Shown here: positions 15,546-50,111 of the stretch, piece after piece | Layout: every line of letters begins with the position of its first letter | Position numbering within the stretch: the first letter of the stretch is position 1 | From: Oopsacas minuta | Lineage: Eukaryota; Animalia; Porifera | Length of the DNA: 64,000 bases | NCBI GenBank assembly: GCA_024704765.1 | Contig: JAKMXF010000188.1 | Location: 605,715 to 669,714 of the forward strand | Reading direction: 5' to 3' | Made by a program: the position numbers and the translations under genes | Notes under the pieces: generated by a model | What the model was told of the DNA's origin: nothing | What the model saw: the letters and a program-made list of their open reading frames with translations, nothing else | Database searches by the model: none

Positions 15546-15614
15546 GTTTGTAATATTAACTGACATTATAATTACATAAATTAGAATAGTTAGTTCTAAA
15601 TTGAGTTTCTATAG

Positions 15615-20326: not shown

Positions 20327-20536
20327 GTATAACTTAATACAATGATGTAGTATATTATCGTCTATGTTATAAACAAATTTACTCTCCAAGTGCCATACTA
20401 AGAGTTCCTAATTCACCACAACACAATTTGCTATGAAACGCACAGTACACATTTGCACATCATTATTCGAAACCAACAAATTCGTCAATGTTTGTTAAAA
20501 TATCAACAAATTTGACATATTTCTATTTTCATTCAG

Positions 20537-22424: not shown

Positions 22425-22635
22425 ATACAGAAGAGAGAATTCTGTCGACTCTGAAAACAAGCTCTCGAGTAAGAGTACTGGCCTGAGGAGACAATCTAGC
22501 TTGATAGACTCATTGGGTAATGCAGCTAATGAAAATAGTTTCAACTTCCTAAAGAGTTATATAGAGTCAGAACACGCTCCATCTATTCTACGGAGATCTG
22601 CGATTCACTCAATGAGGCAATATGACACCGATGAG
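22425..22635 (+). CDS. Putative LLTP exon; boundaries and phase unresolved
   Basis: Open frame with …PSILRRSAIHSMRQY…, which fits the 'R.aAi.alr' type motif of LLTP helical domains. Its junction phase to the upstream exon could not be made consistent. Confidence 0.25.
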
Positions 22636-23918
22636 GTTCGAACAAATTGATGTATAAATTGTATTCATAAATGAGGTCATTTCCACCAAATGTTATATGT
22701 GGTATGGTTGAATCCTTACTACAATGCTTCCATTGAGTTGTCTTTTTTTCAATACTAATGGATATTATTCATCGATATATTAGTACTAGGGATTACAATC
22801 CTGGGATTTCGGGATTGATATTTGGGATTCAGAATATTTCCAATCCCTGGATTTTCGGGATTGTATCTAGCGAACAAATTTTGTAAATGTCAATTAGGAA
22901 AATTTGGAGAAGGAAGATACATATCTAATTTGAAACTTGGCAAACACAAACATAATATTCTGAATTTATGATGTAGTAATATGAATTTAAATAACTACTT
23001 TTTATTGTTCCTAATTAAGCAAAGGGTATTTAATGTTGTGTCGCTTAGTATCGTAACATTTGATTATTGGAGAAAACCTATTTATAGCTTAGTGATACAA
23101 GTACTTGTAATCGTCCTATATTCTTGTTGTTATTTAACACTCACTACTGTAAGTTACCATTGTAAATTGGTTATCGTTTTTCAAGCACGGACAGAGACAT
23201 CATAATAGGCCACAGGGTAAACTGACCGTGCTGCTATAAAACTATTGGTCTCTACAATTTTTTGGTAGAGCAAAATTGATCCTATTATTTTGCCAAATTA
23301 GGTACGAAAAAGATTTACCTTAAATAGAGCTAATTCATAAAATAAAATTCTCAACAACCCGAAAATGTGCAAAGAGATAGTGGTACAACATGTAGAGTGC
23401 GGCTATATTAACTCTGATCCAACTGTAATACTCGTGTGATATTATTATTTATCACAGGCAAGGACGTCGCCAGGATTTTTCAGCTAGGGGGGGCACGAAG
23501 TTTTCCAAGGGGCATGACAATGGGCAAGGTGTTTCACGAGTTTAGCAGGAGCATGCCCAGTGGCGGATCAATAAATTGCGTCGTGTGGCTTTGATATATG
23601 GGGGGCACAAATTTAATCTGGTTGTCAACAAGTTCTAGATGTTTCCTACCAGATTGAATTTGTGCACCCCAGATTTCAAAGCCTTTGGGCGCTGTAAACA
23701 ATCAGTAAGGTCCAAGAGCCAAACAATTGAAAGAGATAACGTTTGGTCTGCAATTGCCCCAGAAAGTTTTTTTTCTGGTCGAGTAATGTGCATCTCGGAG
23801 AATATTTAGGGGGCCCCAGTCACATATCACGACGCTACTGCAGCTGGGGGTCTGATGTGATGTAGGTCTTCCAGTCGTGACGGGGCGTAGCCCTTGGACA
23901 ATAAGTTATAATAGCTAC

Positions 23919-26621: not shown

Positions 26622-27999
26622 GAGTGACACACATTATACTTCTTACATTTAGTATATTCAGAAAAATTATGATTTCGGAAGAATATGGCAAAAGGACTCA
26701 AACCCATATTACGATGGTTTGGGGCATGTACTTAAACTTTTAAAGGGCTTAACCCCTTGCCTGGAATAAATAATTAAATAAATAAATAATATTATACGGG
26801 TATTACAGTTGAAGCAGACTAAGTAGTAAGGGCTTGTAGAATAAACTGGGAACAAATGAGATACGTACATTTATCTGTAAAAATTAATTGCTAAACTTTA
26901 ATAATATAATTTCATTAGAATTTACCTAAATTTAGATAAAATTTTACAACTGCCCGAAACAGAACTTTTTGCTCTCATTCATCAACTTCGATCCAGGTAG
27001 TAAGATTGGGGGGTAGCCCCCAATTCAAATAGTATCTTCAGGGAAAATGGGGGAACTCCCCCTAAATAGAGCCCTACAATACTTACATACCAACTCCTTG
27101 TAACTGTTTGACTGGATATTTTTCTCAAATCCCTGAATTTTCAAGATATTCCCTAGATTTATAATTTAATATGCAAATAATATGGATTTCCCCCTTTTAT
27201 GAGAAAATATGCCAGATATTTCCAATATTTTCCCTAGATTTAGTAATTTCCCCCTTAATCCTGAGTCAAATAATCCTTGGATAATCCAGGGATCACTGGA
27301 TGGTTGGCAAGAATGAAATGTTATGTCGATTTTGTCAAATAAATGGATGGCATATTTTGATCAATCTTTCCCAATAACTTGACGACATTTTAGAGGAGTA
27401 GCAGCAAAAAAAGATTTTTGATGGTAGCCTCTCAAAATACATTCAGTTTTCTACTAATTCGAAATATAATAGATATTTTCAATATTATTGGAGGGGTCAG
27501 GCCCACCAGCGCTACGCCCACGGGTGTACCGGATGTTACATTTCCGTTGTTCGGAGGCAAAGACTAGTACTTAAAATAGGATCAATAACGGTCTACTATT
27601 GACTTTCAGAGTAGTTCGATACGTAGAAGCTGCATTTCTATTAGACATATGCTCAATCTAGTCCGTGTGACGAGGTATCCCATAGTTCAGGGGTTGCCCT
27701 CTATTTGGAAGGGCTTTTAGGAAGGTTTCACTGTATTCCTGTACAAATCACATTGGAAAAGTTAAAAATGTCCAGCAGACAGACTGGTAGTGGAGCTCAG
27801 GTTTGTGTATTTTTGTTCTTTTCAGGGCGGCAAGCACCCCCTGACCTCCCGTGCTGATGTCGACATGCACCAGATCCCGACTGATTTTGGGATGCTGGAT
27901 CTGATAAATATTTCAGGATATTCAATATTATTCATCCCCTACTGAACTTCATGTTCCATCCTCAAATCCTATGGATAAAATTCTAAATAATTATACTAC

Positions 28000-28560
28000 A
28001 ATTACCACCTATCTAACTTTTGAAAAGAAATCTCTAGCATCAATTTGAAATGTGCAAAAAGGTGTGAAAATATAATTAATCATATAGATATAAATTTGAA
28101 AATGTTAATTTTGTAACCTAATGCTCGATTACCCCTAACTAGCAGTTAAAACGAAATCTCAAGCATGATTTTGAATAATATGCAAAAAGGTATGAAAATG
28201 TGATTAATCATAAGACAGATCTGTGAATTTGTAACTTTCAGACTCTCAAAATCTCAAAATCGGACTACGCTCCCAATTACCCTGACTAAATGTTGAAACC
28301 TAATCTCTAGCTTGCTTTTGAATTTTCATGCAAAGGTGTCAAAATATGATTAATCACCAAAAGGTGTGAAATATTCACTTTAGAAAAATTCATATCCGAG
28401 TGCCGATCTCAGACCCGAAATGCATATATATACCAATTTTCACGTAAATCTGAGTGTTGGATTTGCACGACAGTGCAGACGAACTGACTTACGGACGTCG
28501 CACATCGTCTATGCCATTAGGCCATCTTCCTAATGGAGCTTCACAAAAAATTGATCCTGC
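28000..28560 (+). repeat. Three tandem about 130-bp R1 units plus the R1 tail module
   Basis: Units at about 28000, 28130 and 28270, each with …AAAGGTGTGAAAATATAATTAATCAT…. The tail 28340–28560 is the reverse complement of 46430–46630 and 61890–62110. Confidence 0.7.
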
Positions 28561-28846
28561 CTAGAATTCTTTTAGAATTAGAGTTAATTCATCAAAAGTA
28601 CTATGGGGACCATTTTTGGCTGGCCAAATTTTGTCTCCCGGACCAATTGTGGCGTGACAGAGCTACATAAACTTTATTTGATCTATGGGTGGGGATAGTG
28701 AGATCCGAGTATTTACAGCTAGATATATTTAACCGTATGTTCTATCTGGAATTGTTAATTGCGATCTCCGATTATGTGCAGGTTTTATGCTTGATAGCAT
28801 GTACTAGGCTAAGTGTCGCTTCCTCCCTTCCCATATTCATAAATAT

Positions 28847-31800
28847 ATGTGTTATAGTGGTGTATTTGTACAGGCAGCAGATGTCATATTATCCTCTGCA
28901 CTGATAGACAGAGAAGAGATAGTTCGCTATGAGGCAACATTACAATATATTAGACATCCCAAAGCCGATGAAATGTCAGATATCCTATCTGACTATTATA
29001 ACTACACAAAGGTCCAGCAATCTCCAGCCGGAGCAACAAATCGTAGAATCAGGAGGTTTAACATATTCAATGCTTTATCGTTCCATCTACAATCTCCAAG
29101 TTTTAATTGGAGGAAACAAATTGGGAGCGATGAATTTGGTGCTTCAATGGGTCTCATTATACGTAATGTAGTGGAGCTTGATATCAAGCCATTGTCTGGA
29201 AAATTTGAGGTTGATGTTCATAATGAAGCCTATTTCGTTGCATACATTACCTATATTAATTTAAGATTTGATATCTTTCGTGCCAGGGTTTGCTTTAAGG
29301 GGTACATCGCATATAATTTTAATATTCTGCAAGAATTTGGCATTAACTCATTTAGTGATCTAGCGAACATCTACGATAGAACAATAGGCGCTGTGGTAAC
29401 ACCAATTAAACAAGCAGTGGAGAGTTTTCGAGGAGCTTATGGCGACGTAGATGTTAGTTACATATTTGATAGACTTGTGGATGCTGTTTCTGAATTACCA
29501 TTTATCATTGATAATCTCGTGGTTTCTCCAACATTACGTAGAATCCTCCAGCAGTTACAACAACTACCGTTTATCCAGAAAGGTCTCATGTTAATAGATG
29601 ATGTCAACTCATTGTATGAGGATGTAAGGAGCGATGTTTTGATGTTTTACCAAGAGATTTCTGATTGTGTAACGGTTACATTGCCTTGGGTCGGGGAAAC
29701 AGTAAAAAAATCGATCGAAACTATTGGCAAATCGATAAAAGAGTTCTTTAGAAATCCACTCACTGCAATACGTGATGTGATTGTATCTGTATTTCAGTTA
29801 AGAACTGCAATTGATGCTGTTATTGACTGTAAAGATGTTTTGATAAAATCGGCTAAATTTGAGGGAGCTCACATACGAGGTTGGATGGAGTTATTGAACC
29901 ACTTGGGTGAAATATACACTTCAACAATTGAGGCTAAAGAGCTAATTATGATGCAGGCACAAATATTTTCTGAAGCTAGAGATGCTTCTACTTTCGAACA
30001 AGCCACGGGACTCAATCTGACCATTTTACGAATCAAAGTCTATGAAGATCTGAGGGTTGCCCTTGATGAATTCATTCAGCCACTTTCATCCCTCCGAAAT
30101 ATAATAGATCCCTTTATTGTCGCTTTTGCAAACGCTATTCAATTAATCAAAAACACAATAAGTGCTTATGAGACCCTGAAAAACGCATTTGAGTTGGCTA
30201 GGAATCTTATTGAACAACTTTTCGGGCTTAAATTCGATCGAAGATTTCCAAGAAAGCTAAGAGGAGATGATGGATGTGAAGTGTCAAATTGCCAGTGCGG
30301 ATTTTACCCAACAACCTCTGGAAATCCAGATACATATAAGATACATACATATAAGCCAGGCATACAGCTTGAAGTTGTAGTTTTAAAAAGTTTGGTCGCA
30401 CCAACCAATGGGTTATATTTGCGAATCCCAGATGATCGAGTACTGATTTTTCCGTCTGGCTCACTTAAAAGATACGTTATAATGATACATCATGTAGCCT
30501 TGATGGATAATATCACATATGAAGGAATCAATGTGCAGAGTGGAGAAAAGATAGGTACTGTTACGGATACAGGATGTTACCCTAACTTTATCCATGTCAC
30601 TGTAATGACGAGATCTGGAAAACCCCTCGACCCATCTAGGTTTTTAAAACCACGTTCGTTAGTATTTCCGGAATGGATAGAAGAATGTAATGACTATAAG
30701 TTAGTTGTCCTAGGCGATGTGATTCGGGAAGGAGAGGTGATTGGAAAACCTGAAAAAGAGAAGAAGAAAGAACGTGGTAGTTGCACAGATGGAGAGGAGT
30801 GTACCGACGCGAATATAGCAAAAGGAGTCCGTCCTCCAAGAAAGAGAACCTCATATACACCAAAGCATCAACAATCCATTTCTAAGAATTCTAAAGCCAA
30901 AAGCAAGTTACTAGCAAATGCTACATCGAATGGACCGAATGGGCCCATGAACCACGAGATAGATACCGATCTGAAAGAATTCCTTACAAGGGAAGATATT
31001 GAAGAGTATTCCAACTCTGGAGATTTTAGTTTGGTCGTTGGTGGTGGAAGAGGGAAAGATTATAATTTTTCTGTAAACTCAATTATACTGGGAACACTCA
31101 TCGATGCTCTATCGGATTTAGACGATCCAGAGATAAATGAGGTAATAACAACTTTGGAAAATACCATTGACTGCATACGGGAGGCAGTTGAGTGTTCAAA
31201 TGACCAGTTAATTGATCCTTCCCTACTCGATCTCACTTCTATTAAGAGCTCCCTTAAAGTTAGAGGGTTATCCGCTGAGGGAGACAAGGAACAACTTTTG
31301 GCACGACTAATAGAGTTACCTACAGATCTCTGTCCTGATATTCAAGCTGCAATCCCAAGGAATCGTTGGTGCTCAATAAGCGACGATTGCTTGACATTGA
31401 AGTGTGCTGCAGCTCTCAAATTAGACTTCCTGTCCTATTCTGTAACATTCCAAATTACATTAGATCCATGTACTTCCTCCATCATGCTGAAATTTCAAGA
31501 CTTTGAGAGAGTTATTGATCTTCCTGCAATTTCTGGTGGTTTAGAGCTGAACATACCAATTGAGTCAGTTGATTTATTAGACATTGCTACTCTTAATTTG
31601 GGTGTGAAAATAGTACGAGATGACTTAAATATCTTTCTAAACTTCAAAGCTTATCTCTGTGCTCCAGATACGACTTCTGAAGATTATTCACATTGCTTCT
31701 TTGATATTGAACTTCTAGCTAGAGCTGTATTCAAGATTCCTAGCCCGTTCAATTGTAACTCGAATGAGAGGAAAAGAGAGACTAGAGAGATTGAAACAAG

Positions 31801-33710
31801 TGATGTGACTTCATGTGGCATACATATCCCAGATTTTAGTAATATGACCCTTGCTGAGTTTGTTACCTACATCAAAGATCTTGGGGATATAGGATCAGCT
31901 GGTGCCTCAACTACTAACATCAACCAACTTATGCAAGACCTGAGGAATGTGTTTCTGACTGATTTGTTGGATTCAATAATTAGTGGTGAGAGTACAATTT
32001 CAGGTGAAGAGACTGATTTCCCGACTACCTTTGATATTTGTGTTATGGGATCTTTTGGAGTCCAAAAAGTCAGAAACTTTTTCACCAAAGGTCGGATTGT
32101 AATTATCGGATTTGTTCCAGTGAGTTTCCTAATTAGTCTGGATGGATTTTATGGTGTTGACTTAAACCTGAAATTGTGTTTTATAACCATGGCTGCTTCT
32201 GCGGAGGTAATACCAAGAACTGGTCTAATTTTAACGGGAAGTGTTGGACTTTCGATTGCCATAGCTGAGGTTGGAGTAAAGTTAGTTGGAAGGATCCTTG
32301 ATACAAGTCTACCAATTCAGCCCACCATTGGGTTTAAAAAGTTTCCTCTAGCACTAAGAATTCGTATTGACTTGAAAATAATACCTCTGAGCATTTCTAT
32401 ACGTTTCTTTCTAAAAATCGAATTCACTTTATTATTTATTACGGTCTCGGAGACTCTTTTCGATCACGAAGTTTTTCACTGGAGCGCACCTGCCATCCTA
32501 ATCAATCTCTTAGATGTTACTAATGCTGAACAAGATGATTCTCCTCCCCTATTTTCACCAATTGCCGACTCGACGAGATCACGGCGCTCCCTAGCGACAC
32601 CTTGTGATGTGAGTCAGATTGTAGGAAGAGACTACACAGACCCAGCATTTTTTCTTCAGATAAACGTAGCAGATGACAAGAGTCAAGTAGAACTCACTTA
32701 CTCTGTGGGTACATATCCAGGAGGAAATGACGTAGTTAGAGATGATAGAATGAATGGCAATACTGTATTAATTGCTAGGCAATTACTATCCAGTATTCCT
32801 CTCTATTGGACAGCAAAGGCCTCCAACTCTCAGGGAGTGTCTGCCGCCAGTGAATGTAGTCTCCCAACTTATGATACTACTCTTCCAATTGGTCGAGTAG
32901 ATTTCATGGAGTACATATATTCCAGTCACCCGTCAATACTCATTGGAGAGACTACTATTATCGACGATACAAACTTAAAGAGACACTTACAAGCTATTGG
33001 TTATGGACTTGGTCCTTTTGGTGACCAGACAGTTGGATTCATTTCATTTGACTTCGAACCTAATACTCCCATCAGTGTGAGTGGCACGATTGAGAATTTT
33101 ATCGCAGTGTTAAACAAACGGTTAGGTGTAATACCATTCAAAGTTTCCAGTGGTAAAGAGCTCGAGGAATGTGCAACAGACTGTCTGCAATTCCCTACTA
33201 AATGCTTCTCCTTCAACTATGCACCAGTTTCTCATATATGCGAGCTACTCAATGATATTGGCGGAGATTCTAGTCTGGAATTCGCATACGATCTTCAATA
33301 CAGTTACTATGAGAAGAGGGGAGTAGGGTATCGTGCAAGTTTGAAGCATGATAACCTCCCATTAGTACACAACACACTGTACTTTCTAAATATATATCTC
33401 ATGAATGAGCTCTTGTATGAGAGGTACCTCCACTCACCAGGAATTCTCATCGACTTTACTCCACCTGAACCTGGAATGATTGTGAATGCTAGCATGAACG
33501 AGACAAGACATGATGGTTGTTCAGCTGCATTTAATCAGAGATGTGAACCTCCTCAGTATGTAACTCCACTGAAGTATCATCATGTTTTACAAGATGGCGC
33601 TGGATCTGAATGTGTGTATAATGGTCCTGTAATAGGTACTGATAAGATGTATACCAGACAGAATTCTTTCTTGAGCATAGTATTCCATGGATTTCATGAT
33701 TTAGAAAGTG
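28847..33710 (+). CDS. Giant single-pass membrane protein gene, exon 1 (4.86 kb). It holds a helical N-terminal region, a LECT2/M23-like domain, a SAP-like motif, a furin-type RSRR site, a PAN-like Cys module and the first HYR/FN3-like repeats. Its true 5' end may lie upstream
   Basis: Uninterrupted 1640-codon ORF from ATG 28847. A strong GGTGAGT donor at 33711 lies inside the repeat motif (…FHGFHDLESG|). Splicing to the acceptor at 36086 restores the canonical ESGI motif in phase. An alternative phase-0 acceptor (TTTGTACAG) at 28872–28873 exists, and there is no signal peptide after the ATG. Confidence 0.65.
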
Positions 33711-35609
33711 GTGAGTTTGCTTGTTATTATATTACTAATAGTATACCAAAAACAGTGGAACTTGCATAATCCGATACTCGTCGGGACATGAAAATAACGT
33801 CGGATTAGTAAATTGTCGGGTTACAGTGGATACCGCTTATAAGAAATTTCTATATAGCAGTATTAACAGGCTTGCCGTGGAGATGAAATATCCCAGCCAT
33901 ACTCCATATCCATATGCATTTCTGAGCCATTTTAAGTGGATATCCATAGATATTGTTAAAACCCGAGGACTGTTAGCGTTGGGTATCCGTAGATGCCCTG
34001 TTGCTTAGACTCCTTCTTGGTACAGGTTTCCTGGTGGACTTCCACTACGGTTATGCCATTCGTTTTTATCCATTTTCTGTAGGTCAAATCGTACCACACG
34101 AATGTTTTGGAACAATATCCACATTAGAGATACATCCCGTACATGTAGAATTATAGATGTAGACTTGTCCCAGAATCTTTCGATGATCACATCGCGACTG
34201 ATCTTTGGAATTCCATATATAATTTTGTAAAGTTAATCGTCAGAACTTACGATAGGAAACTACATGACTTTGTCATGATTACTCAATTAGTATAAGTTTT
34301 CAACGATTAGGTGAAAAGAAATAGTATTACAGGCGACAACCCTTAAGGAAAACATTTGTTCGAATTAGTGAAAGTTCGAACTATTACGGGTATTCGTATT
34401 CACTGCTGTTGACTGTATAATGCATATTGCCAATTATTTGCCAATTATCGTAAATATTTGGAAGTATGGACATCTACAATATCCATGGATATGACCAAAG
34501 CTCGTTTGGCTAAAATATTTTCGGATTTTAAAGGTATCCCGGATTATTTGTGACAAAAACAAATACTTCAATGTTTGTACAGGTAAACCTCTTTTTACGC
34601 GGTAGATGCGTTCAATGATGAAAAGTCCGCTTAAAAAAATATGACAATTCTCATAGAAACACATATGAATCTTTTATAGATGCTTTTCCAAATAGATATC
34701 AAAATCATTTGTTCGAGGAACTTTAAATTGGATATACAGTCGAAATCGGGGTATTTCGCCTCCCTGGGTATTATTGCAATTGCTTGTTTCTCCTTAATAC
34801 TATTTAATTACAAAACGAATTTAGTATATTTGCTACCGGTTTTTTGCGTATCGGGGTTTTTTTGCTGCCTTGATCATGTAAAAAATTGCCTCTCTGTTTC
34901 TTGCCCTCTTACAAGTGTCAAGTGATCCAAAACTCCCGATTTCGATTGCAGTTTCATTGGTCAACATTATTGAACATTGATAATTGAGTTACTATACTTA
35001 AATTATTATTTTTGTTGTCTCTGTACTACATACATTAATTCGACGGACGTAAAGACTAAGAAATTTCACCTTCTAAGCAACTATTGCTTTAGTGGTTGAA
35101 AAGGCGGTTTTTTGCCTCATTTTCCGTGCATTTTGGGGAAAAAACCGATTTCGACTGTATTTGAGAATAATGTTTGAATTCAGAATCTGGAAATAGGAAT
35201 CGTATAATTATATACGTATAATCATTTCTAGATGTTCTCATATTGTATTTATTATATCAGATAGCTTAATATTCGAATTCGTCCTTATCTTAGAGCTCAA
35301 CGAACACGTTACTTTCGAATACGAACAGTTCGTACTTCGTAACCAAGGAAAAGTTTGTCATTGATTTTTGTGTCATCAACAATATTTATGTGAATTGTTC
35401 CCTTCCAGATGCATTATTTCGTTTTTTCGATTTGAGTGTTGAAAATATTCCAAATGCTAAATCGGTTGATGCATAGTAGAAATGTTTAGCTTTGTAGCAT
35501 TTTGTGAATTAATTAATTAATGAAATTTGCAAGGCCGCGGAAAATGGAATTGTACTATAACCCAGCTGCTAAGACCTTAATATTAGGCGAATTGTTCATT
35601 TTTTGAAGA

Positions 35610-36006
35610 AAGTGACATTTTTGGTCCAGATATAGCTTATGGCATCTTAATTTGATAGGAAAGGGGACCCACTCTGGATCTTCCCTATTTCGGGAAAAAT
35701 TTCCCCAAATGTTGACATAATGGCCGCAGGGCGACAAATTTGCACTTGAATTATTCCAAAACGATTTGATGGATCGAATAGGTCAAAAAAGCAAAATTCT
35801 ATTACATTGTGCTATCTTACCAGAAAAACAGCTTTCGTGATGACTAGAAATCATTTGAGAAAGTTATACAGATATTTGAATATTCCCCCAGTGTCTGGAC
35901 ATACGGACCTTGTGGGACAATTTTTCACGAAATAGGGAAGATCCGGAGAGGGCCCCCTTTCTATGGAGTTAGGATAAAATACGCTATACCTGGACCAAAA
36001 ATGGCA
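35610..36006. repeat. MITE-like inverted-repeat structure within intron 1 of the giant gene
   Basis: Arms about 35610–35700 and 35917–36006 (TGACATTTTTGGTCCAGATATAGC… / …GCTATACCTGGACCAAAAATGGCA), about 85% complementary, with an about 215-bp spacer. Confidence 0.6.
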
Positions 36007-36086
36007 CTTTCATCAAATAAATGAATAATTTTAAGCTTAAGCAGCTGGACTACAAGTATAATAATGTGAATTGAGAATTTAAATAG

Positions 36087-36402
36087 GTATCTACGCCTAC
36101 ACATGGTACATGGATTATGAGATTTGTGAGGATAATGTGATTACGCCTAGAGATCCCAATGAACACTCCACGACACCTCTCTCTGATATAAATCAGGGTA
36201 GAATATTTCAACATTTTGATGACGGGACATATTACGTGACAGTTCAGGCACTGAACAAGGTGATACTTGGTGGATCTGGTGTTCTCACTGTCTGTCATTC
36301 TACACCTTATACTATTGATACATCTCCGCCAGTCATTAGCAGAGTCATTCTCATTTCATACAATTCTAACACAAATCTATCTATCTTCGTGTATCAAGCT
36401 TG
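36087..36402 (+). CDS. Giant gene exon 2
   Basis: Acceptor AAATAG at 36085–36086. Phase (1+2) gives …DLESG-IYAYTWYMDYE…GTYYVTVQALNKV…DTSPPV…. GTAAGT donor at 36403. Confidence 0.55.
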
Positions 36403-36810
36403 GTAAGTATAATAGTGTAATATAATTGAAGCTTAACTGTCTGGCTTTACCAACGGGCCAAGCAAAAACTATTGTGTCGACAATTGATCCTGCAATAGCC
36501 GGACGGACCGAACTGAATCCTCCAGCCTTGGACTTGCAGATTGCTGAGTATCATTGTTTGTCCTTTTGAGGTATTGGAATACCAAGAATATTATTTCGGA
36601 TTACTTGTCCAATATTTTGTATGGCAATGAAAATTAGATTCATAGTAAAGTGTCAAATTTGTATCTATTTTTTACAAAATTTCATGTATACCCTCAAGAG
36701 TTGTGACATACAACTAGAGGTGAAATGTCCTTAAATTTGTTCAAATTATTTCGTCGTTTCTATTTACACTACGTATATGTTCATGATTTTATACCTTACT
36801 TCTCCTTGAG

Positions 36811-37019
36811 GGATGTTGAGTCAGGTTTGAAGGCTATTGAGTTGGGAGCAGGTCTTACACCTAATGACATTTCTATACTCCTTTGGACTCCAATATTCGT
36901 CAATCAGACAGCTACAATCACTTATCGTATTGATGTAGCAGATGGACAGAGGGCCTTCATTCGTATTAAAGCAACTAATAATGGTAATAATGGTATAGTA
37001 CTAATTAAATCAACATCCG
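36811..37019 (+). CDS. Giant gene exon 3
   Basis: Acceptor TCTCCTTGAG at 36809–36810, phase (2+1), giving W-DVESGLKAIELGAGLTPND… (repeat motif). Donor G|GTTACT at 37020, chosen by phase; this is a weak site. Confidence 0.45.
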
Positions 37020-37170
37020 GTTACTCGAATGCTCGTTAACTCGAACGAATATTCACTCCCCATTGTTGTATATTTAATACTTATCGCACCGTTAACTCGA
37101 ATGGATTTTGACTTCCCCTGAGGTTCGAGTTACCGAATGTTGACTGCATACAGTAATTATATTCTACATT

Positions 37171-37826
37171 TAGTTGATCTCGAAAGTGCCTCCTACGCTC
37201 CAGAACCGATCATTGTTGATCGTAGCCCTCCCATTCCAGGAGTCGTGCTTGACGGAGATGGGTTCGGATTATCAGACTTCAAATACCAATCTTCTGCCTC
37301 AAAGATTTGTGCAAAATGGAAAAACTTCTTTGATCCTCAATCAGGAGTCTCTGCTTATCGTTGGGGAGTAGGCACTGCTCCTGGGATGTCAAACATTGTA
37401 GCTTTTACAGAAGATCTTCCCTCTGACCAGAATGATATCTGTAGAGATGGTTTGACACTCCAACATAACACCACGTACTACTCAACTATAATAGCATTCA
37501 ATGCTGATACTCATCAGCCTAAAAACTCATCTGCTTCTTCCAATGGTGTCCTTGTAGATCTAACAAATCCAATTGGTGGCTATGTTCTTGATGGTCTAGA
37601 AATTACCAACACTATACACTACACTTCCAATCCTACCTTAGTGCAAGCAGTGTGGGGAAACTTCTCAGATCCGGAGTCTGGTATTTCTCAGTATAACGTT
37701 ACTATTTACGTTGCCAATGTATTGCAGTTTTTGCCAGCTACCAATCTTGAACCAGATCAAGAATGTCAGATTACATCTACCAACACAATAGTCCCTACAA
37801 GACAGCATTTTATACCCCCCAGTGAT
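37171..37826 (+). CDS. Giant gene exon 4
   Basis: Acceptor CTACATTTAG at 37169–37170. The exon encodes VDLESASYAPEPIIVDRSPPIPGVVLDGDG…WKNFFDPQSGVSAYRWGVGTAPG…WGNFSDPESGISQYNVTI…. GTAAGT donor at 37827, phase 0. Confidence 0.55.
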
Positions 37827-38454
37827 GTAAGTAATATCTATTATGCTGTAAACAGGGCCGTCGTGGGGTGGTTGGGGGTGTGTGTCAGGGTATATACTTG
37901 GATGCCGCTTCGTAATGGTGCAAACATGTTGTAGGCGCCTCTGTTCGAGCTATCGATGCGCATTGATGACACTTTCATTCATACGACGGTCTTGATGTTA
38001 GGTTATAATCTTAGTGGGTTAACTCATGGGCGTAAACGAGCAAATCGGGCCGCGATTTGACACCAAAAGACATTATTTTGAGTCTAAGAGTTGGAATCTG
38101 TTCAATGTTGAATGTTAGATATAATACAGCAAAAATTTCAAATTTAATTCCGAGTAGGCCTCTGGGCCGCCCGAACATTTTCGGGTGCCCGGGTCGTTTA
38201 CGACTAAGGGTTAACTATCAGTATACTGAAATGAATCGTAGAATACTTGTGTTTTCGTGTTTTTATCTTCAGAAGGATATAAATTGGATTAAATACCACC
38301 AATCTCGTCCGTAAAGAAATTTCTGCTCGATTTTATCTAATGTCTCCACACATAGGCTTGATAGAGCCATTTTGGGTGGGCGGCTGCCCACTCTGACTCG
38401 GGAGCTTAGTTGCGCTAATGTTTCCACAGACTTAAACATTTCAATACATATTTA

Positions 38455-38605
38455 GGTTGAGTTTAGGATAGCACAAGAATCATTGTCTGTTGGCTTAGAA
38501 CATCAAATCCACTACAAACACTTTCATTTCTCTCACGGTGAATACATAAGGACAAGAGTTACAGGACAGGATGGTGCCACAAGATTAACTGAAGTCACTA
38601 GTCAA
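38455..38605 (+). CDS. Giant gene exon 5 (not in the ORF track; found by phase)
   Basis: Acceptor ATATTTAG at 38453–38454. 50 open codons VEFRIAQESLSVGLEHQIHYKHFHFSHGEYIRTRVTGQDGATRLTEVTSQ+G. Donor G|GTATAT at 38606. This exon restores the phase between exons 4 and 6. Confidence 0.5.
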
Positions 38606-38853
38606 GGTATATTATATTACCATATTTCCTTGAATAGTAGCCTGGTCGATTAGTAATTTCAACCCTCTTATGAGGGAAGTTATGATCTTTCTATACACGT
38701 AATGTCTTTATCATCATCCCTATGTAATACGAACCAACCGCTTGTAACTGTTTCCCTGGATTTTTAAAAAATTTTGGATTTCTAATATTTTTCAGAGGAT
38801 GCAGTGTTTATATGATTCGTACTAGTATTTAACTAATGAATTATGGCTTTTAG

Positions 38854-39308
38854 GTGTTTTAGTCGACTTAACACCACCTAAGATAGTCCAGCTCTACGAT
38901 GGTGCTAATTTCGGGATAGACGAGTCATACCAAACATCCATTACAGTACTACATGCATCTTGGATAATGGTGGACAAGGAATCTGGAATTTCAGAATATC
39001 AACTATCAATATATGCCAGGAGTCAAGGCTCAACCTCTAAATTCTATCCAGAGGATGCTCCCTACATTACTTTGCAGCCACAAGAAATTGGAGAATCAGG
39101 TATTCTTAACTGCTGGACTGGTAGAGACATTCCGTTGAGCATTGGTACACTCTATACTGTGAGAATTGTCCCAGTGAACCGAGCCAAACTCTCTACTATC
39201 TACACGTCAAACGGGATAATTCCAGACAATACACCACCTGTAATTGATTTTGTACACATTGGTACATATGGTGATGAGTCTGAAGAAATAACTCCTCAAG
39301 AAAATGCG
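38854..39308 (+). CDS. Giant gene exon 6
   Basis: Acceptor GGCTTTTAG at 38852–38853. The exon encodes GVLVDLTPPKIVQLYDG…WIMVDKESGISEYQLSIYARSQG…. GTAAGT donor at 39309, phase 0. Confidence 0.55.
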
Positions 39309-39422
39309 GTAAGTAAGAAAAGTACTACATATTACGAGATTTGTCTCTGGCAGCAAACTGACCGTCCGAACTGTAGTAAAGATCGGGTTAACTGGCATAA
39401 CTTTAATATTACGTACTTCTAG

Positions 39423-40032
39423 GTTGAGATTGGTAACTCTGGTAAAATTCCAGTACAGTGGTCAGCAAGCGATTCTCAAAGCGGGATTATTGGATTTGTA
39501 GCAGCAATAGGAACCAGTCCTGAAGGAATTGACACATCAGACTACACAGAATACTCTGCTTCAATCAATGTTGGTATACCTGTACAGCTACAATTGTTCG
39601 AAGTTACTGGAAACTACTACTATGTGACAGTGCGAGCTAAGAACGGAGCAGGGCTTCTCTCCGAACCAACAGTATCCAGTAAAATTAAGGTTCTACGAGC
39701 AAATGTAGCTGGGGTAGTGACTGTAGGACACTCTGGTATCGGAATAGATGGAGGATTCCAAGCAGAAAGTGACACAATAACTCTGAAATTTGATGGTTTT
39801 TCTAGTGAATTGTGTGGCATACAATATTTTGAGTGGTCTATAGGGACAAGTTTCGCGGGCGATCAAATTCAGGAATTTACCACTGCTGGACTTGTAATGG
39901 GAGAAGATGGGTCAGGAGTGTCACAGGCACTTGTACCATTGCATTTAGGGAGATTAACGTATACTGAAGTGAGAGCAATAACAGCATGTTCCTCTGGAGA
40001 TGGACAAGCAACTATCAATAGTTTTGGACAAG
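39423..40032 (+). CDS. Giant gene exon 7
   Basis: Acceptor TACTTCTAG at 39421–39422. The exon encodes VEIGNSGKIPVQWSASDSQSGIIGFVAAIGTSPEG…YYYVTVRAKNGAGLLSEPTVSS…. Donor AAG|GTTAGA at 40033, phase 1. Confidence 0.5.
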
Positions 40033-40945
40033 GTTAGATCTATTACAGTTACAAATAATACTCTCTTGAATCTTGATATTTTGCGAGCATACACGATTCA
40101 ACATTATTGAATGGTATTAGACAAATTCCACGGTAAAAGTATACAGGATTGAAATAAATTCAATAATACATATTGCACAGCTTTATTGCATCATATATGT
40201 TTGGTATTAGAGTTAGAATGTGCTAATTTGTAATTGCATTAGACTCGAGCTACAAATATACATAATTTATGAAACGCTCTATTCGCACTATTTTACGATT
40301 TAGTATAGCAATGAAAATATATTAAGAGATCTATTTTTTGTTACAATAATATCTTAATTAAATGTACATTGCTGTTAGCGAGTAGATACAAGTACAGTAA
40401 AATTTGGATATTACAGGACATAGAATACTATATCATACAGATAGGAAAGTAGACAAGTAACGAATAAATAGAATGGTCATGTGAATAAATCTCATAAAAG
40501 TTAAATTAAGCCTTCAAAGTTTGTGAACTGAACTTTTCAAGGTAGAAAGATGTAAGGAATCAGTTAAGACTACTAAAAAGACATTAATTAATCGATATAC
40601 AAGAATTTCAAAAGTAAAAAATTCAATTTTTGATGAGCATTTATGTGAATGTTGATGATGTCATGATTTGAATGCGCCTAAACGAGGATGAAGGATGGCC
40701 GTTAGAACCTTTTGAGAAGTCTTAACTGATTCTTTACATTTTCAAGTCACAAACTTTGGAGGCTTGATTGAACTTTTATGAGATTTATAAAAGTAGCCTC
40801 TCTTTTATATTCGTTGCTCGGTTACTTTCCTATCTGTGTTATGTAGTAGTCTATTTATGGGATAATCCAAGGAGTTGTGGTCTCCGATTGAATGGACAAT
40901 TATTGACAGGTTGCATTATATTATATTACTTGTAATTGTTTCTAG

Positions 40946-43900
40946 CAATACTGGTGGACTGGACTAAACCTAATCTGATACTAACAGAGTTAGGACAGCA
41001 AATTGATGGAGTAACTTATAAGTATCCTCAATCTGATGACAAGATATATCAATACGACCCATCTACACTTGTAGCTAGATGGAGTGCTACAGATCCTCAA
41101 AGTGGTATTAACAACATACAATATCACGTGGGCACTTATCCCTATACTGCTAATATACAGCTGCCAAAACTTACTCGTGGAACTAGTCTAGCCTCAAATG
41201 ATGTGGAACCAGAAAACACAGGAGAGCCGAACATACTCCATCTCATAGCATTCAACAAGGCAGGTGTATCCACATTCCTTATCGCCCCTGGTATCACTAT
41301 AGATACACTTATCCCCAATACTGACCAATTACGATTCACATGTACCCAGTACGCTGTCACCACCACTAGTTCATTGGTATGTAATTGGTATGGAGCATTT
41401 GATGAATACAGTGAGGTCAATGGCTATGAAATAATGTTGGGAGAGGAGGAAATAGATACAACCTTCTATTACGAATACTTGGATAGAAATGCCATTACGG
41501 TGACCATCAGGAATTTCACCAAACCACTAGAAGTAGGTGATCAGGTGTACACACTGAATGTTATTAACAGTGTACGACTGAGTAATCATGCGTTTGCTCC
41601 TTTAACAATTGATGATTCTCCTCCCATTCCTCAGTCTGTATTCGTATTGACTGATCAAACACAAGTTGCCTTCTTTCCTACTGGTGAAGTTAACTCTACG
41701 TTCAATTACGAGAATGCAACGTCATCTGGAGTTCAGTGTAAGATTATCGTCACAGATATTCATATTAGATGGGAGGATTTCGTTGACCACGAGACTCCTA
41801 TGGATTTTTATGAGATTGGGATTGGAGAAAAGCGAGGACAAATGAACATTGTGAGCTTCTTCAACGTGGGTTTAGTGAACGAGTACTTTATTGAAGGGTT
41901 AGACCTGACGCGTTATAAAGTCATATATGCAATTATTCGAGGAACCAATCGAGTCGGCCTGATCCAAGCGGCGAATTCCAATCCTATCTATTTGTCGTTA
42001 CGATACCCCGATCCTGGATACGTGTATGACGGCTCTGAATTCCAAGACTTAGAGGCTCAGGCTGGTATCACCTTTCTAGAAGGTTATTGGAATTTCAATG
42101 ACCCTTGCCCTGCAGTGCACTATGACTGGGCAATATTCTATATGAACCAAACAACCATTCAGAACTTTACACGTGTTGAAACTAGCCACTCCTCGAACGA
42201 TAACCTTGCAATGCAACAAGATACCAAGGTTTATATCAGCGTAACAGTTTACAGTTCTATTGGTTATGTGAGATCTTCTCGGTCTAATGGTATCACTATT
42301 CAAGTTGATCCTCTTATCCCAGGAGTAGTGTATGATGGTCCTGTCCCTGGATATGATTTTGACAGTCAAGCATCCTTGACTTCCATAATTGCCAATTGGA
42401 ATTCATTTGGAGGTACTGATCCAGAGAGACTCTCAGAAATGGTTATTCAATATGAAATAGCAGTAGGGACGGGGTGGAGAGGTGAGGACAGATTCAACGT
42501 TGTGGAGTATGAGAATATGTATCTGAACACTTCTGCAACGCTAAGAGGACTTGAACTGCAAAGAAATACCTCTTATTACGTCACAATTAGAGGTACAAGT
42601 GGCACCTTCCAACAGGCAGAGGCAACTTCTAATGGAATACAACCGATAGAATTCAATAATATTGCTGAACCAGGTTCTGTAGAGATCCCTTCATTCCAAT
42701 CTGCCACAACACTGCTTGACATCACTTGGAAAGATTTCACCTCATTACTTCCTATTGCATTCTATGAATACGCAATCAGTACTGATGGAAATCTCGCCGA
42801 GTTTTCTTGTGAGACTGTGGAGAACGCTGCTGACCCTCTCGACGAGTACTTCACTGTTAGACAGTACACTAGAGCTGTATTACAAGCTTCAGTGGTTGCG
42901 GATAATTTGCATCTAGTAGGAGCTACCAAATACTACGCTTATGTGCGTGCAATTGATAATTCATTTCAGTGTACAGCTGCTGTCTCCCATCCAATAGTTA
43001 TAGACACTACACCGCCTATTCAGGGCAAATTCAATATAGGATTCAATGTTACTAGTGTACGACCTGAATTAACTGAAACTCAGATCTATTATATAACCGG
43101 AAATGATACTCTAGCTGTTCATTGGGAAGGTTTCTTCGATCCAGAGAGTTATATATCCAACTACCAGATCGCAATCATTGAACAAGATAACTGCAATATT
43201 CACAATTGTGATGAGATAAGTGATTTGACAGAATTTACTACGATTAACAATGTGAACAATTATACATTCTATGTCATCCAACTTGTGACAAGTAAATTCT
43301 ACTTTGTGGCTTTACGTTCTATCAACCAAGCAGCACTCACATCATGTAGCGTGTCACAGCCTATCAAACTGGTAAAATACTCTCTCAATCCAGCAGTAGT
43401 TAAGTACGGAACAATCTGGAAATTTTCTCCTCCTTACCAAGGGAGTACCTCTAGGGTTGAAGGTGTTCTAGCTCTTGTGAGGACAAAGCATGATGCTGTG
43501 TGTATGGAACGTATGTATAATCAAAGTTCCACGACAGAAGATTGGGACACAATCACTCAGTCAATCACTTCTACAATCCCAGTAGGACCTAGCAATCCAA
43601 CAGGCAGAACTCTAATGTATCACCCTCAACAGATAGAATTCACTACTGACAGTGCATTTTTAAAGGTCAGCATGACGCGAGACATCCAACGTGAGAGGAT
43701 GCTCTCTGGTGCTGCTGTCACACAGATGTCAGTAGTAGACCTGAATGAAATGAGTGTTAGCATCAAGGCTGCCCCTGAATTCCAGGCCGTCACTTCTGTG
43801 TTATTCTGGGACGGACCTGCTTCAATGGTTCAGGAATATGAGATGCTTTATGAACTGGAAAACGTCACACAAACTAACTTCGGCCAAAATCTACCAACAC

Positions 43901-46170
43901 AAACACCCAGTACATGTCAATACATGCCTCCTCCCAACCCCAACCCAGTACCCTACAAAGCGTTTGGTCTCCAACTACACCCCTCTTACAATTCCAGCCC
44001 TGCGAGAGCTTTATTCTGGTACAGAGGTCAGACTCCTGAAGACACTGGGTACACATGGATAGATCTAGACTATGATCCTAGTGCTGCCTTCTACACGTAT
44101 GACTTTAAACTCTACAGAACCAGTTCAACTACTCCTAGTACAGCTACACTTGGCACCTGGACTGTGGATTTAGTGGTAGACGGCCAGTTCTTAGGCAATC
44201 TTGTTGATCTGCCTCAACTGAGATCTAGTATCTACCTTGTATTACATGTCCGGAACTTTAACGGAGGAGTAGAGTCGTTCTCAAATCCCTTCTTTCCTCC
44301 TACTACCTCGGCCTATTTCACTGATGTCAATCTTCCAGCTGATAGCAGTCGGGTTTGCAAATTTGGAGCACCATTCTATAGCCCAAAGGCACCATTTGTG
44401 AAGTTTGAGGTTGGAGTAGGACGAGAGTATGGTTCTACTGAGGTATCTCTTGCAGCGGGTCGAGAATATCAGTCTATACCCTCACCATGTATTCCTTGTG
44501 TTGAAGGCTGCAACAACTCACTACCCAATCTGTGTAACTCTACATGCAATTCCAACGTCTACTATATACAGTTTGTAGCCAGTGGGCTCAGTTTGCAATC
44601 AGGTTGTACTCATCCGTTTAACCTTACTAACGTGACATGTACTCCCTACAACTATACTGACACAGGTATTCCAGAGGATCAACTATACCAATACAATATC
44701 ACATTTGTACCATATGTGTACTATATGAAGGTGAGAGGATACACGGCTACAGGAGAGATAGCTTACGGCTACTCAGATGGTATTCAGCTAGATACAACAC
44801 CTCCTAACTGTACACTTATACAACATGTACAAAGAGATCTGAGAAGTGATCAGTTAATACAAACGAGTGCTCAGGATAGTGACAATTCACTGGCTGTGGA
44901 ATATCAGTGTGAAGACACCAAAAGTGACATATATGACTATGAAATAGCTTACTCGGATAATGTAACTGATATTGATTCTCTCCAATTCACTTCAGTGGGC
45001 ACAATCAAAACCGCGAATATAACCAATCTCGAGCTGATACCACAACTCAAGTACTATGTGATTGTTAGAGCCATCAATGGTGCTGGTTTGAGTACAATAC
45101 TGGTAAGTCAGGGAGTGAGGATTATGAACCAGGAGCCGGACATTTCTAAATCTGTCATAGAACCTTTGTATTCAACAAAGATCGATACAATAATTCCAAA
45201 TACTTTCCTATCTACACAACTTACTTCTCTCGGTTTGCATTGGACTGGTTTCTATCCTACTCATTATGAAGATAATTACCTTGTAAAGAATCAAACTATT
45301 TTCTGGAAAGTAGGCACAGAACCTTACAAGGATGACATCATGCCCATTTTCGAGATAACATTCGGCAATGCTTCCTCCATTCGTATTGAAGGATCTCAAT
45401 TAATTGGTAATGGTAACTCAAACGATCAAGTTATTGCAAATACTCCTGATATAATAATGTTGGCGAATAAATCAGCAGGTATTTATACCGGGAGTGAAAA
45501 TATCTTACAAGCAGAACCTGGAATGATTTTGTATCAAACTCTCGTACTCTGTGCTATTCAACCTAAATGCAAAGATGCTGGCACACCATCAGTTACTTAT
45601 TATAGAGATACTACTGATACATATGCTGTGTACCAACGTAATAGTGAATATTACCTTTCTATTGAGGAAGGCTTTGCTGAATATTCTTCTGGATTTTCTG
45701 GCCAATTCATCCCTCAACTAATCTATCCAACCAACTGTAAAGTTTACTTCTCTGAAGACCTGCAAGATTTATCTGGATTTGTCATTGGACCCCTCTCACT
45801 CAGTGATATGAAGGTTAATTATGACATCCTCTCTGTCCCTTTCAGCTCTCCGTATACGCGTTACATTGTGGATCCTGGCTCCACCCTCACCCAAGTGGAC
45901 AGATTTCTCTTCACCCGTATACAAGAGTTCCACGGTCCCTCTTTCTACATAAGTCCTATAGGCGGAGTTAACTTCCCTTCTTGGTTGAAGATTGAAATAA
46001 AATTTAATGCATCTCGAATTGTTGAAACAAATCAACCATTTCTTGTTGGTTGGAACCCTGAGCAACAGCAATGGGTATCTTCTCGTAGCAGTTGTAACTT
46101 CGATAAAGAGGATACTATAACTGGTGATACACTGACAACGTATTTCTGTCCTTGTCTGCTATCTAATGAG
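40946..46170 (+). CDS. Giant gene exon 8 (5.2 kb; about 15 tandem HYR/FN3-like repeats)
   Basis: Acceptor TGTTTCTAG at 40944–40945, phase (1+2). Continuous 1741-codon frame. Each repeat unit has D.(T/S)PP..G.V.DG, then about 30 aa, then W.(G/N)F.D.ESGI..Y...(I/V)GT.PG, then about 50 aa, then YY.TVRA.N.AGL.S…S.G. Donor GAG|GTTTGT at 46171, followed by a SINE-like R2 repeat in the intron. Confidence 0.6.
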
Positions 46171-46189
46171 GTTTGTTTTTCTAATAAAT

Positions 46190-46440
46190 ATAATTGTTGG
46201 TTGTCTGTTTGTCAGTTGTCAAGGACAGGGTTTATGGTATGTTAGTCAAGATCAGATTTTTGCATTTTCAAATAAATTGTGCCATACGTAAATATATTGT
46301 TACTGTATTAATTAATGATATGAATATGGTGCAAACAATATCGCAATTCCTCAAACTTTACTAAGAGACTTTAAATTATGGGTTACATTGGGGTAACAAG
46401 GTACGCTGGATCAAATTTTTAGTGCAGCTCCTATAGGGAG
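46190..46440 (+). repeat. SINE-like dispersed repeat family R2 (…CAAGGTACGCTGGATCAAATTTT…)
   Basis: Related copies at 48720–49080, 50480–50560 and 55950–56300. All but the last lie in introns of the giant gene. Confidence 0.6.
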
Positions 46441-46630
46441 ATGCCCTAATGGCATGGACGATGTACGGAGGCAGTGCGAAATCTAGCGGTCCCATTAAAT
46501 GAAAATTAGTGTACATATAGATACATTTGGATCGGATATTTTGCCCTTTTGGGGATGAACTTTTCTAAAGTGATTTTTTCCCATCTTTTTGGTGATTAAT
46601 CATATTTTCACACCTTTTTACACATATAGT
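46430..46630 (-). repeat. R1 tail module, inverted copy
   Basis: Reverse complement of 28340–28560. Confidence 0.6.
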
Positions 46631-47803
46631 AGTCTCATTAATACGAACACGGTTAAGACATAAATCCAGTTAAGGAGTACGAATTTAGCAGTCCCCTGGT
46701 GAAAGTATTAACAAGACTCTACTGTATTTCAAAATGATGCTAGAACTTTCGTTTCAACTTCCAGTTAGGGGTACAATACATCCTCACTAATCCAGACAGC
46801 ACTGTTCCTATTACTAGATTAGCGAAATGCTCGGAAACGATACTATAGGATATAGGGGACATTTTTTCGAAAGTTATACAAACGATGAAGGCTGCAAACA
46901 TGTGTAATATAACAATATGTATTTGTCCACACTACAATTGGATACAATTAGTTATTTTTGAACATTTTAAGACATTTTCCAGGAGATAAATAATTATCCC
47001 TTCGGATCTATTCGGATTAATGATGATTCGGCTTAACGAGAGTCTACTGTAAGAGAGCATGTTTTTTCTATTATGATATTTTCATGTTCATACTTTTAGC
47101 ATATTACTAAAAATAATGCTAGAAATTCGTTTGAACGGGTAGTTAGGTGTTCAAACGAATTTATAGCATCATTTTTGAGTAATATGCTATATTGAAATCC
47201 AATTTTGATTTTTTCAAATCTCAATCTACACGATTTATCATACAATTAGTCTTATTTCTACCAATTTACAACAAATATTTTGTATTGGGTAGGGATGTGA
47301 CAAGGGCGGCGGAAGGTGTTAGGTGGCGGTCAGGCTTGATCTATATTAAAGTGGTCAGGCCCGTGCCATAGAATTGAGTAGGACAAGGCAAAAGTAGTCA
47401 ATACAATATCTATTATTCATTTATTGTTGTTTTTATGGACTCTTACTCAGAAGTATTACAATATTAGCATGATTCCGGTTGCGTCACCTATACCGAGATT
47501 CGGTCTAATCAATTTTGTCGTTCGCTAATGTTAGTCAATTCAAATTTCATAAAAGTATTTATACTTTGCATATACGTATTATGCTATACGCATTAATACT
47601 TGTACAGCGGAAACCCCTATTAGAAATTCGTCTAATAGCAAAATCCGCCTATTAACAAATTTTTCATGGACAAAGAGTCCAGTTTTGTATCGTAATTAGT
47701 ATGTATAATAGCTAAATTCGGGTATTAGTTGGAAAATTCTTGCAAAATTCGATTGCTATTAGGTGATTGCAATTGTATGTAATATGTATCCAATATTCTA
47801 TAG

Positions 47804-48131
47804 CGTTGTAACAAGCCCTGGCAGTTTATATTAGTAGTGGGGAGTGCTACATTTGATGATACTCCTCCCATACCAGATCAAGTCCCGTGTATCAGCATTG
47901 GAGAAGGTTCGGTAACCATTCAGCATCTCATCACCTACACAGACATAGAACATGACACTGTGAATATCAGTCTGACATCTGTCACATTCACACGAGCTTC
48001 TTCTGAGTACTCTCTTGCTGAAGATGGGACAAGTTTATTGAATGCTGAAATAAATGGAAACATATTTTACTTCACTCCTTGTAGTGGTTGTTATGGCAAC
48101 CTATCCGTGCAGTACTCACTAACAGAGACAG
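47804..48131 (+). CDS. Giant gene exon 9
   Basis: Acceptor TCCAATATTCTATAG at 47802–47803, phase 0. The exon encodes …SATFDDTPPIPDQVPCISIGEG…. Donor AG|GTAATC at 48132, phase 1. Confidence 0.5.
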
Positions 48132-49764: not shown

Positions 49765-50111
49765 GGCCCAAATAATGATCCTGATTGTAGCAAAATTATT
49801 GAAATCGAAGACTTCTCCAGTGAGTATTCATGTGAGTGTACGGAAGAATGGGCACTGAGGAGATGTGATAAACCCAATCTCTGTCTCTCTCAGCCCTGTC
49901 ACTATAACGCCACCTGTCAGATTAAAGAGAATGGAGATTATGAGTGTTTATGTGAACCTGGATGGCGTTGTTCTCAGATCTTAACTCCAGGAGAAATATC
50001 TGCTGTCGTATTATCAATTGTGATTATTCTGCTAATTATAGCAGTTGTGAGTCTTATAGTGTGCGTCTATCTTATGCAGAAAAGGAAGGGAGTGTACAAT
50101 ATCGGGATTGC
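49765..50111 (+). CDS. Giant gene exon 12: rest of EGF-1, EGF-2, transmembrane helix and stop-transfer
   Basis: Acceptor TTTTCATTTAG at 49763–49764. The exon encodes GPNNDPDCSKIIEIEDFSSEYSCECTEEWALRRCDKPNLCLSQPCHYNATCQIKENGDYECLCEPGWRCSQ…ISAVVLSIVIILLIIAVVSLIVCVYLMQKRKG…. GTAAGT donor at 50112. Confidence 0.65.

Follow-up and report, generated by a model that had tools for sequence, protein, structure and literature searches.

The repeat gene and its copies

A stretch of 64,000 nucleotides from the hexactinellid (glass) sponge Oopsacas minuta (assembly GCA_024704765.1, contig JAKMXF010000188.1, positions 605,715 to 669,714; hereafter the window, numbered from its first letter) carries on its forward strand a large multi-exon gene that encodes a tandem protein repeat. 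The G+C content of the window is ~35%. The gene is visible as a series of stop-free stretches in the same direction, including two giant exons (28808-33710 and 40946-46170), with smaller exons between these two and 3' of the second. Exon junctions were taken from frame-keeping GT-AG pairs, and the joined peptides were scored against a hidden Markov model (HMM) of the repeat or against the Oopsacas orthologue; the junctions designated J3 and J4 and those past 49321 are of low confidence. The gene seems to span at least 15.3-50.1 kb, and the predicted protein exceeds 4,300 residues. The product is predicted to be a giant type I membrane protein because the 3' end of the gene encodes an EGF domain and a hydrophobic helix with basic residues after it:

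49882-49965, forward strand: EGF domain (Pfam EGF, 29.4 bits against a cut-off of 21.5)
49996-50073, forward strand: transmembrane helix (hydrophobic run ISAVVLSIVIILLIIAVVSLIVCVYL, then basic MQKRK)

A preliminary description of the locus reported a tandem repeat with a characteristic signature, from a DxTPP start through an ESGI centre to an N-x-AG-L end. This repeat is genuine and lies on the forward strand. An HMM built from the units of distant homologues alone, with no window sequence included, assigns the window copies E values from 2e-24 to 1e-3, whereas the rest of the window, on both strands, gives only E >= 2.5. Since the homologue-only model separates the copies from everything else in the window, the repeat is real and not a chance pattern. 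An alignment of 76 units (A1; seven from the window and 69 from homologues) has a consensus of 106 positions, xxDxTPPxxGxVxDGxxxxDxxYxxxxxxxxxxWxGFxDxxSGIxxYxxxxGx...VGx...LxLxxGxxYYxxVxAxNxAGLxxxxxSxGx, in which a spacing of 13 residues precedes VG and one of 9 residues follows it. The copies are as follows, with the E values of the profile:

32531-32866, forward strand: R0, degenerate copy (per-domain E 3.8e-4, profile positions 36-101)
32867-33445, forward strand: R0b, probable degenerate copy with a nested PAN/apple domain (C-terminal part matches at positions 66-105, E 0.069; N-terminal part assigned by eye, tentative)
33143-33316, forward strand: PAN/apple domain (PAN_1, 27-30 bits against a cut-off of 21.4)
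33446-36310, forward strand: R1, 163 residues (E 4e-11), split by intron 33711-36086
36311-37211, forward strand: R2 (E 4e-12), split by introns 36403-36810 and ~36984-37173
37212-37550, forward strand: R3, the best-conserved copy and the one modelled (E 9e-31)
37551-38858, forward strand: R4 (E 2e-18), split by intron ~37719-38455 (less certain junction)
38859-39218, forward strand: R5 (E 2e-20)
39219-39695, forward strand: R6 (E 2e-17), split by the short intron 39309-39422
39696-40950, forward strand: R7 (E 6e-11), followed by intron 40033-40945
40951-43365, forward strand: R8-R14, seven contiguous copies in the second giant exon (E 1e-7 to 4e-25), starting at 40951, 41296, 41605, 41992, 42295, 42640 and 42997 and ending at 43365
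44323-44784, forward strand: R14c, degenerate, with a cysteine-rich insertion (only the F-G part matches, E 0.63; tentative; B-C part FYSPKAPFVKFEVGVG identified by eye)
44785-45117, forward strand: R15 (E 5e-25; Pfam fn3 at 44872-45093, 41.2 bits against a cut-off of 25)
45118-45420, forward strand: R16, degenerate (E 0.009, profile positions 25-79)

Fifteen copies are well preserved (per-domain E<1e-6 with the profile run on the spliced protein), and 14 of these are consecutive: R1-R14 run unbroken over 33446-43365, with R15 standing apart at 44785-45117. Four further copies are degenerate, two of them inside 33400-48131 (R14c and R16; a Pfam scan of these two gives no matches) and two upstream (R0 and R0b), and the PAN/apple domain appears to be nested inside the degenerate unit R0b. 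The total is ~17-19 copies, with 17 inside 33400-48131 when the degenerate ones are counted. The earlier estimate of 110-120 residues per unit agrees with the observed median of 115 (range 101-129, with the single copy of 163), but the count of at least 25 consecutive copies over seven exons was too high, and the copies are spread over eight exons. Nor does the repeat fill 33400-48131 continuously, as had been described: three stretches within that range (43366-44322, 45421-46170 and exon 47804-48131) are not the repeat. The exon end at 48131 is a genuine donor site.

The array is old. The mean pairwise identity among window copies is 26%, and no tandem repeat is found in the array at the DNA level, which together exclude a recent tandem duplication. 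Each copy is 58-70% identical to its own counterpart in other glass sponges, so that each position in the array is conserved individually.

The positions of the introns also bear on the history of the array. The preliminary description placed an exon boundary inside the ESGI motif and suggested an old phase-1 position that was kept as exons were duplicated. The junction itself is confirmed: intron 33711-36086 is in phase 1 and lies inside the Gly codon of ESG/I (the slash marks the junction), with the exon ending at 33710, the donor GTGAGT at 33711 and the acceptor AG at 36085-36086. The exon reads GAT TTA GAA AGT G before gtgagt, and resumes across 36086/36087 as GT ATC TAC after aaatag, which yields D-L-E-S-G-I. 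The other six introns of the array cut the unit elsewhere. Intron 36403-36810 in R2 is in phase 2 and falls at W/D-x-ESG, and ~36984-37173 in the same copy lies in the F-G loop. Intron ~37719-38455 in R4 falls at the end of strand C, and 39309-39422 in R6 is in phase 0 in the A-B connection, at a junction that agrees with the Oopsacas orthologue. The remaining two lie between units, 38607-38853 between R4 and R5 and 40033-40945 (phase 1) between R7 and R8. With one of seven introns in the ESGI motif and no position that recurs, a conserved intron position across units is rejected, and exon duplication that kept such an intron finds no support. Eight to nine units lie in a single intron-free exon of 5.2 kb.

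Assignment of the unit to the fibronectin type III fold

The repeat unit is very probably a diverged fibronectin type III (FN3) domain, an ordinary known fold; the assignment is supported by sequence profiles, by Pfam and by predicted structure. We are equally confident that ~17-19 tandem FN3 copies, 15 of them well preserved, make up part of the extracellular region of a giant membrane protein. When the A1 profile is compared with all PDB chains, 216 matches are obtained, and all 60 of those listed are chains that contain FN3 domains. They include titin (7.7e-26), contactins (~1e-11) and fibronectin 1fnf, domains 7-10 (2e-8), as well as single-domain monobodies (6.7e-6), FN10 (1e-4) and one contactin-1 domain (per-domain 2e-4). 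In these matches, profile positions ~24-98 align to FN3 strands B to G.

The Pfam results point in the same direction. The family that matches most units is fn3 (14 of 76 at E<0.01), and its gathering threshold of 25 bits is reached by the giant exon, the consensus and homologues but not by most single window copies. The consensus unit scores 25.0 bits, equal to the cut-off, with unit positions 24-97 on positions 10-74 of the 84-position model. The giant exon scores 41.2 bits, mostly from R15, and the homologue P0019 scores 101 bits. An Oopsacas minuta orthologue in UniRef carries the name 'Fibronectin type-III domain-containing protein'. The core of FN3 is defined by a Trp in strand B, a Tyr in C, a Leu in the E-F region and a Tyr in F, with no Ig-type disulfide. 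The consensus has W34 in strand B, Y45 in strand C, L77/L79 before strand F and Y84-Y85 in strand F; the Trp is >90% conserved in A1, and there is no conserved cysteine column.

Structure prediction, which the preliminary description had proposed, gives an AlphaFold2 (AF2) model of R3 with high confidence scores (pLDDT, predicted local distance difference test, 94; pTM, predicted template modelling score, 0.86), and its only structural matches are FN3 domains. The unit forms a seven-stranded beta-sandwich with the FN3 strand order, in which sheet A-B-E faces sheet C'-C-F-G.

Several points weigh against this assignment. The TM-scores of the structural matches are only 0.5-0.6, owing to the N-terminal extension of the unit, and the unit has more residues than a classical FN3 domain. 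Most single window copies fall below the Pfam fn3 threshold; no fn3 match is obtained for R3 alone or for the other repeat-bearing exon segments scanned singly. The gene model behind the array is based on splice-site logic and homology. The rigid joint and calcium binding suggested below are still hypotheses and count on the same side.

The extra length was central to the earlier proposal of an undescribed extracellular beta-sandwich repeat, in which the unit was put at 30-40 residues longer than either the FN3 or the hyalin repeat (HYR) fold. This overstates the difference. The consensus has 106 positions against 84 in Pfam fn3, with ~14 of the added residues before strand B and ~9 between strands B and G, in the C-to-E region. 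Before strand B, the excess is made up of the linker with DxTPP, the GxVxDG of strand A and an A-B connection that is long (16 residues in the R3 model) and contains DxxYQ. In single window copies, loops are lengthened by up to 22 residues more, mainly in the A-B connection and the C-to-E region. The Pfam model omits the linker and part of strand G. Because real FN3 arrays already repeat every 90-100 residues, the true excess is ~10-20 residues, in the linker and loops. The other observations that favour a new fold are that neither Pfam nor NCBIfam has a dedicated model spanning the whole unit, that fn3 matches a minority of the units (14 of 76 at E<0.01), that the unit exceeds the classical FN3 length and that the proteins are labelled 'hypothetical' or 'uncharacterized' in their sources. 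The PDB profile matches listed are nonetheless FN3 chains only, the consensus attains the fn3 gathering score, and the added residues lie in the linker and loops and add no core strand. A new type of fold is thus extremely improbable, and the profile and structural evidence rule it out; assignment to an existing family, with the extra length located in linker and loops, is the outcome that the preliminary description itself had named as evidence against one.

The same description offered a highly derived HYR or FN3 domain as the alternative, and the FN3 half of that suggestion is the part that stands. Membership of the HYR family (PF02494) is scarcely credible. The likeness is superficial and consists of the D-x-T-P-P start (D-x-x-P-P in HYR), the acidic-x-SG centre and the A-x-[ND]-x-AG-[LN] end (A-x-D-x-AG-N in HYR), within a broad Ig-like/FN3-like fold class that both share. 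HYR domains have ~80 residues and conserved cysteines. The unit is ~30 residues longer, lacks those cysteines and has FN3 domains as its structural neighbours; none of the 76 units matches PF02494 at E<=0.01, and the consensus does not match it at E<=10. HYR membership is rejected on the profile results.

A third possibility, that the unit belongs to another Ig-like family (PKD/REJ, or bacterial Big_3 or OmpL47-type domains) and not to FN3 proper, is very unlikely, if a little less remote. It would account for the weak matches of the consensus to REJ (18.2 bits), PKD (14.6), Big_5 (14.6), Ig_Rha78A_N and Ig_J_second, for a Big_3_2 match in the Acanthaster homologue and for the OmpL47-type model NF047446, which has a cut-off of 40 bits and reaches 182 bits, over seven stretches, on the bacterial relative P0046. 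All matches of the consensus and the window copies to these families nevertheless lie under the curated cut-offs, and the best Pfam match is fn3. NF047446 passes on P0046 only: it scores 28 bits on P0023 and shows no match at E<=0.01 to the consensus, the form in which the window repeat was scanned. PKD, which had been put forward for comparison, is rejected as a family for the unit, since the consensus scores 14.6 bits (E 0.032) against a cut-off of 23.5 and none of the 76 units reaches E<=0.01. As Ig-like families share a broad fold class, weak cross-matches are expected.

A distinct FN3 subfamily and a proposed joint between its units

As judged from profile matches, the FN3 units of the window belong to a distinct and poorly annotated subfamily common to bacteria and marine invertebrates. 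Proteins from ENA assemblies, 58-70% identical, are the nearest relatives of the giant repeat exon, and a named relative is an Oopsacas minuta protein. Distant relatives, at 22-25% identity, are found in Oscarella, Acanthaster, Branchiostoma, Littorina and marine bacteria. A search of 1.84 billion representative proteins with the A1 profile gave 33,978 matches at E<=1e-3, of which 12,007 reach E<=1e-10 and 2,430 reach E<=1e-30. The best matches are proteins of 2,000-8,000 residues with 15-35 full-length units each, and the top named ones are hypothetical proteins of metagenome-assembled Acidimicrobiia, Ca. Schekmanbacteria and Marinimicrobia, and T9SS-sorted proteins. A word-index homologue search with the unit alignment returned three short, near-identical fragments only. 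The presence of the subfamily in both bacteria and marine invertebrates invites the question whether genes were transferred.

The units resemble those of classical FN3 arrays (titin, contactins, DCC/neogenin, PTP-delta and fibronectin) in the core Trp, Tyr, Leu and Tyr described above, in their head-to-tail arrangement in the extracellular parts of membrane or matrix proteins and in profile matches down to E 1e-25. They differ in length (~106-115 residues against ~90-100), in the fixed D-x-T-P-P linker, in the long A-B connection with D-x-x-Y-Q and in the strong conservation of the B-C loop GF-x-D-x-[ES]-SG-[IV], and most copies stay below threshold in Pfam. Giant bacterial surface proteins, including the T9SS-sorted P0023 and P0025, match over the full 106 positions and carry 15-35 units; in P0025, ConA-like Laminin_G_3 domains stand among the units, a parallel to the probable ConA-like insert of the window protein. 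The bacterial copies are more regular than those of the window and have D-x-AG-N in the F-G loop where the animal copies have N-x-AG-L, and the C-terminal domains of the bacterial proteins serve secretion or sorting, whereas the window protein ends in EGF and a transmembrane helix. Giant proteins of Oscarella lobularis, Acanthaster planci (LOC110985345), Branchiostoma and Littorina saxatilis contain 15-20 units of the same subfamily, with different flanks: N-termini that are cysteine-rich/TSP1-like or EGF-like and, in one protein from Branchiostoma, a DUF642 domain. To our knowledge, none of these animal proteins has been studied.

The pattern of conservation suggests how neighbouring units might fit together. 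Conservation is strongest in three motifs, namely the DxTPP linker, the W-x-GF-x-D-x-[ES]-SG-[IV] of the B-C loop and the N-x-AG-L of the F-G loop. Each unit closes with S-x-G-[IV]-x-[VI]-D, which leads directly into these motifs in the next unit. A standard FN3 domain has its N-terminus at the same pole as its B-C and F-G loops. The conserved motifs would then all sit at the N-terminal pole and face the C-terminal end of the preceding unit; because they share this pole, the DxTPP, B-C and F-G motifs would most likely build a fixed joint between neighbouring domains. At ~3.5 nm per FN3 domain, 17-19 units would form a semi-rigid rod of ~60-70 nm, which could hold the N-terminal modules of the protein away from the membrane and carry embedded binding modules, namely the PAN/apple domain and the probable ConA-like domain. 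By analogy with cadherin linkers, one may speculate that the acidic residues of the motifs bind calcium.

FN3 is among the commonest extracellular modules, and the main value of recognizing it here is therefore correct annotation. Pfam fn3 detects the subfamily poorly, and a dedicated profile would improve the annotation of giant surface proteins of bacteria and invertebrates. Beyond this, a tentative reading joins two proposals. The first is that the units make up a discrete, unnamed FN3 subfamily, recognizable by DxTPP in the linker, by the length of the A-B connection and by an acidic DxESG in the B-C loop, and common to giant surface proteins of bacteria and giant proteins of marine invertebrates; its conserved acidic pole would form a rigid joint, which may be calcium-dependent. 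The second is that the gene encodes an undescribed membrane-anchored protein in which a lipid-binding module of vitellogenin type at the N-terminus is combined with an FN3 stalk; its conservation may extend from sponges to echinoderms, molluscs and amphioxus, and it may be split or truncated in current annotations. We regard the two together as possible and somewhat doubtful.

Upstream modules, interruptions and neighbouring sequence

The second of these proposals draws on the part of the gene upstream of the array, which, judged by homology, appears to start with exons encoding a domain of the vitellogenin-N (large lipid transfer protein) type. Read from its 5' end, the gene appears to encode first an N-terminal module of the lipid-transfer type, then a barrel with a weak likeness to M23 and a segment resembling SAP, and after these the FN3 rod, EGF and the transmembrane helix. 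The features outside the array are:

15259-22650, forward strand: exons of vitellogenin-N (lipoprotein N-terminal) type, same gene, upstream context (collinear tblastn)
43366-44322, forward strand: conserved insert of 319 residues that interrupts the array between R14 and R14c
45421-46170, forward strand: end of the giant exon, 250 residues, conserved, not the repeat (donor at 46171)
47804-48131, forward strand: exon starting DDTPP, conserved, not the repeat (acceptor 47803, donor 48132)

With the first 700 residues of homologues as query, collinear tblastn matches occur at 15481-15786, 20585-21043 and 22486-22635, and then from 28871. The part of the first giant exon that precedes the repeat (28847-32530) shows homology, with E values of 1e-78 to 1e-83, to proteins from Patiria, Mytilus and Branchiostoma. 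These homologues, annotated merely as 'vitellogenin domain-containing', have Pfam Vitellogenin_N at their N-terminus, and the homologue of Mytilus coruscus runs from Vitellogenin_N through to the first FN3-like unit. The translation of the upstream exons of the window gives a weak match to Vitellogenin_N. The weakly M23-peptidase-like and SAP-like segments lie between the vitellogenin-N part and the FN3 array. A search of the literature for vitellogenin or large lipid transfer proteins with FN3 domains, or membrane-anchored, and for Oopsacas FN3 proteins found nothing relevant. The apparent union of a vitellogenin-N domain with a membrane-anchored FN3 stalk could be informative about how the large lipid transfer proteins evolved early in animals.

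The insert at 43366-44322 has no match in a Pfam scan, and its profile gives a weak beta-glucanase match in the PDB (E 0.31). Its AF2 model has a pLDDT of 50.7 overall and a beta-rich core, with block means of 56-79 in the strand-bearing parts. The Foldseek matches listed for this model comprise L-type lectins, an alginate lyase, and GH16 glucanases with related glycanases, the best at E 4e-6. The insert is probably a concanavalin-A-like lectin/glucanase jelly roll, an assignment that is only tentative because the model is of low confidence; given the Laminin_G_3 domains among the units of P0025, a lectin-like insert is plausible and not established.

Pfam and PDB sequence searches with the tail of the giant exon (45421-46170) return nothing significant. 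The exon at 47804-48131 matches the repeat profile at positions 1-17 only (E 0.35) and gives weak cadherin-like or PKD-like hints (Cadherin_4, E 0.07; HAI-1 internal domain, E 0.04), with nothing significant in a PDB sequence search. One of these two segments ends in TTYFCPC. Within the long intron 22650-28808 of the repeat gene, open reading frames on the reverse strand at 24372-26319 are probably a transposon remnant, because one of them encodes a C-terminal dimerisation domain of the hAT transposase family (46 bits).

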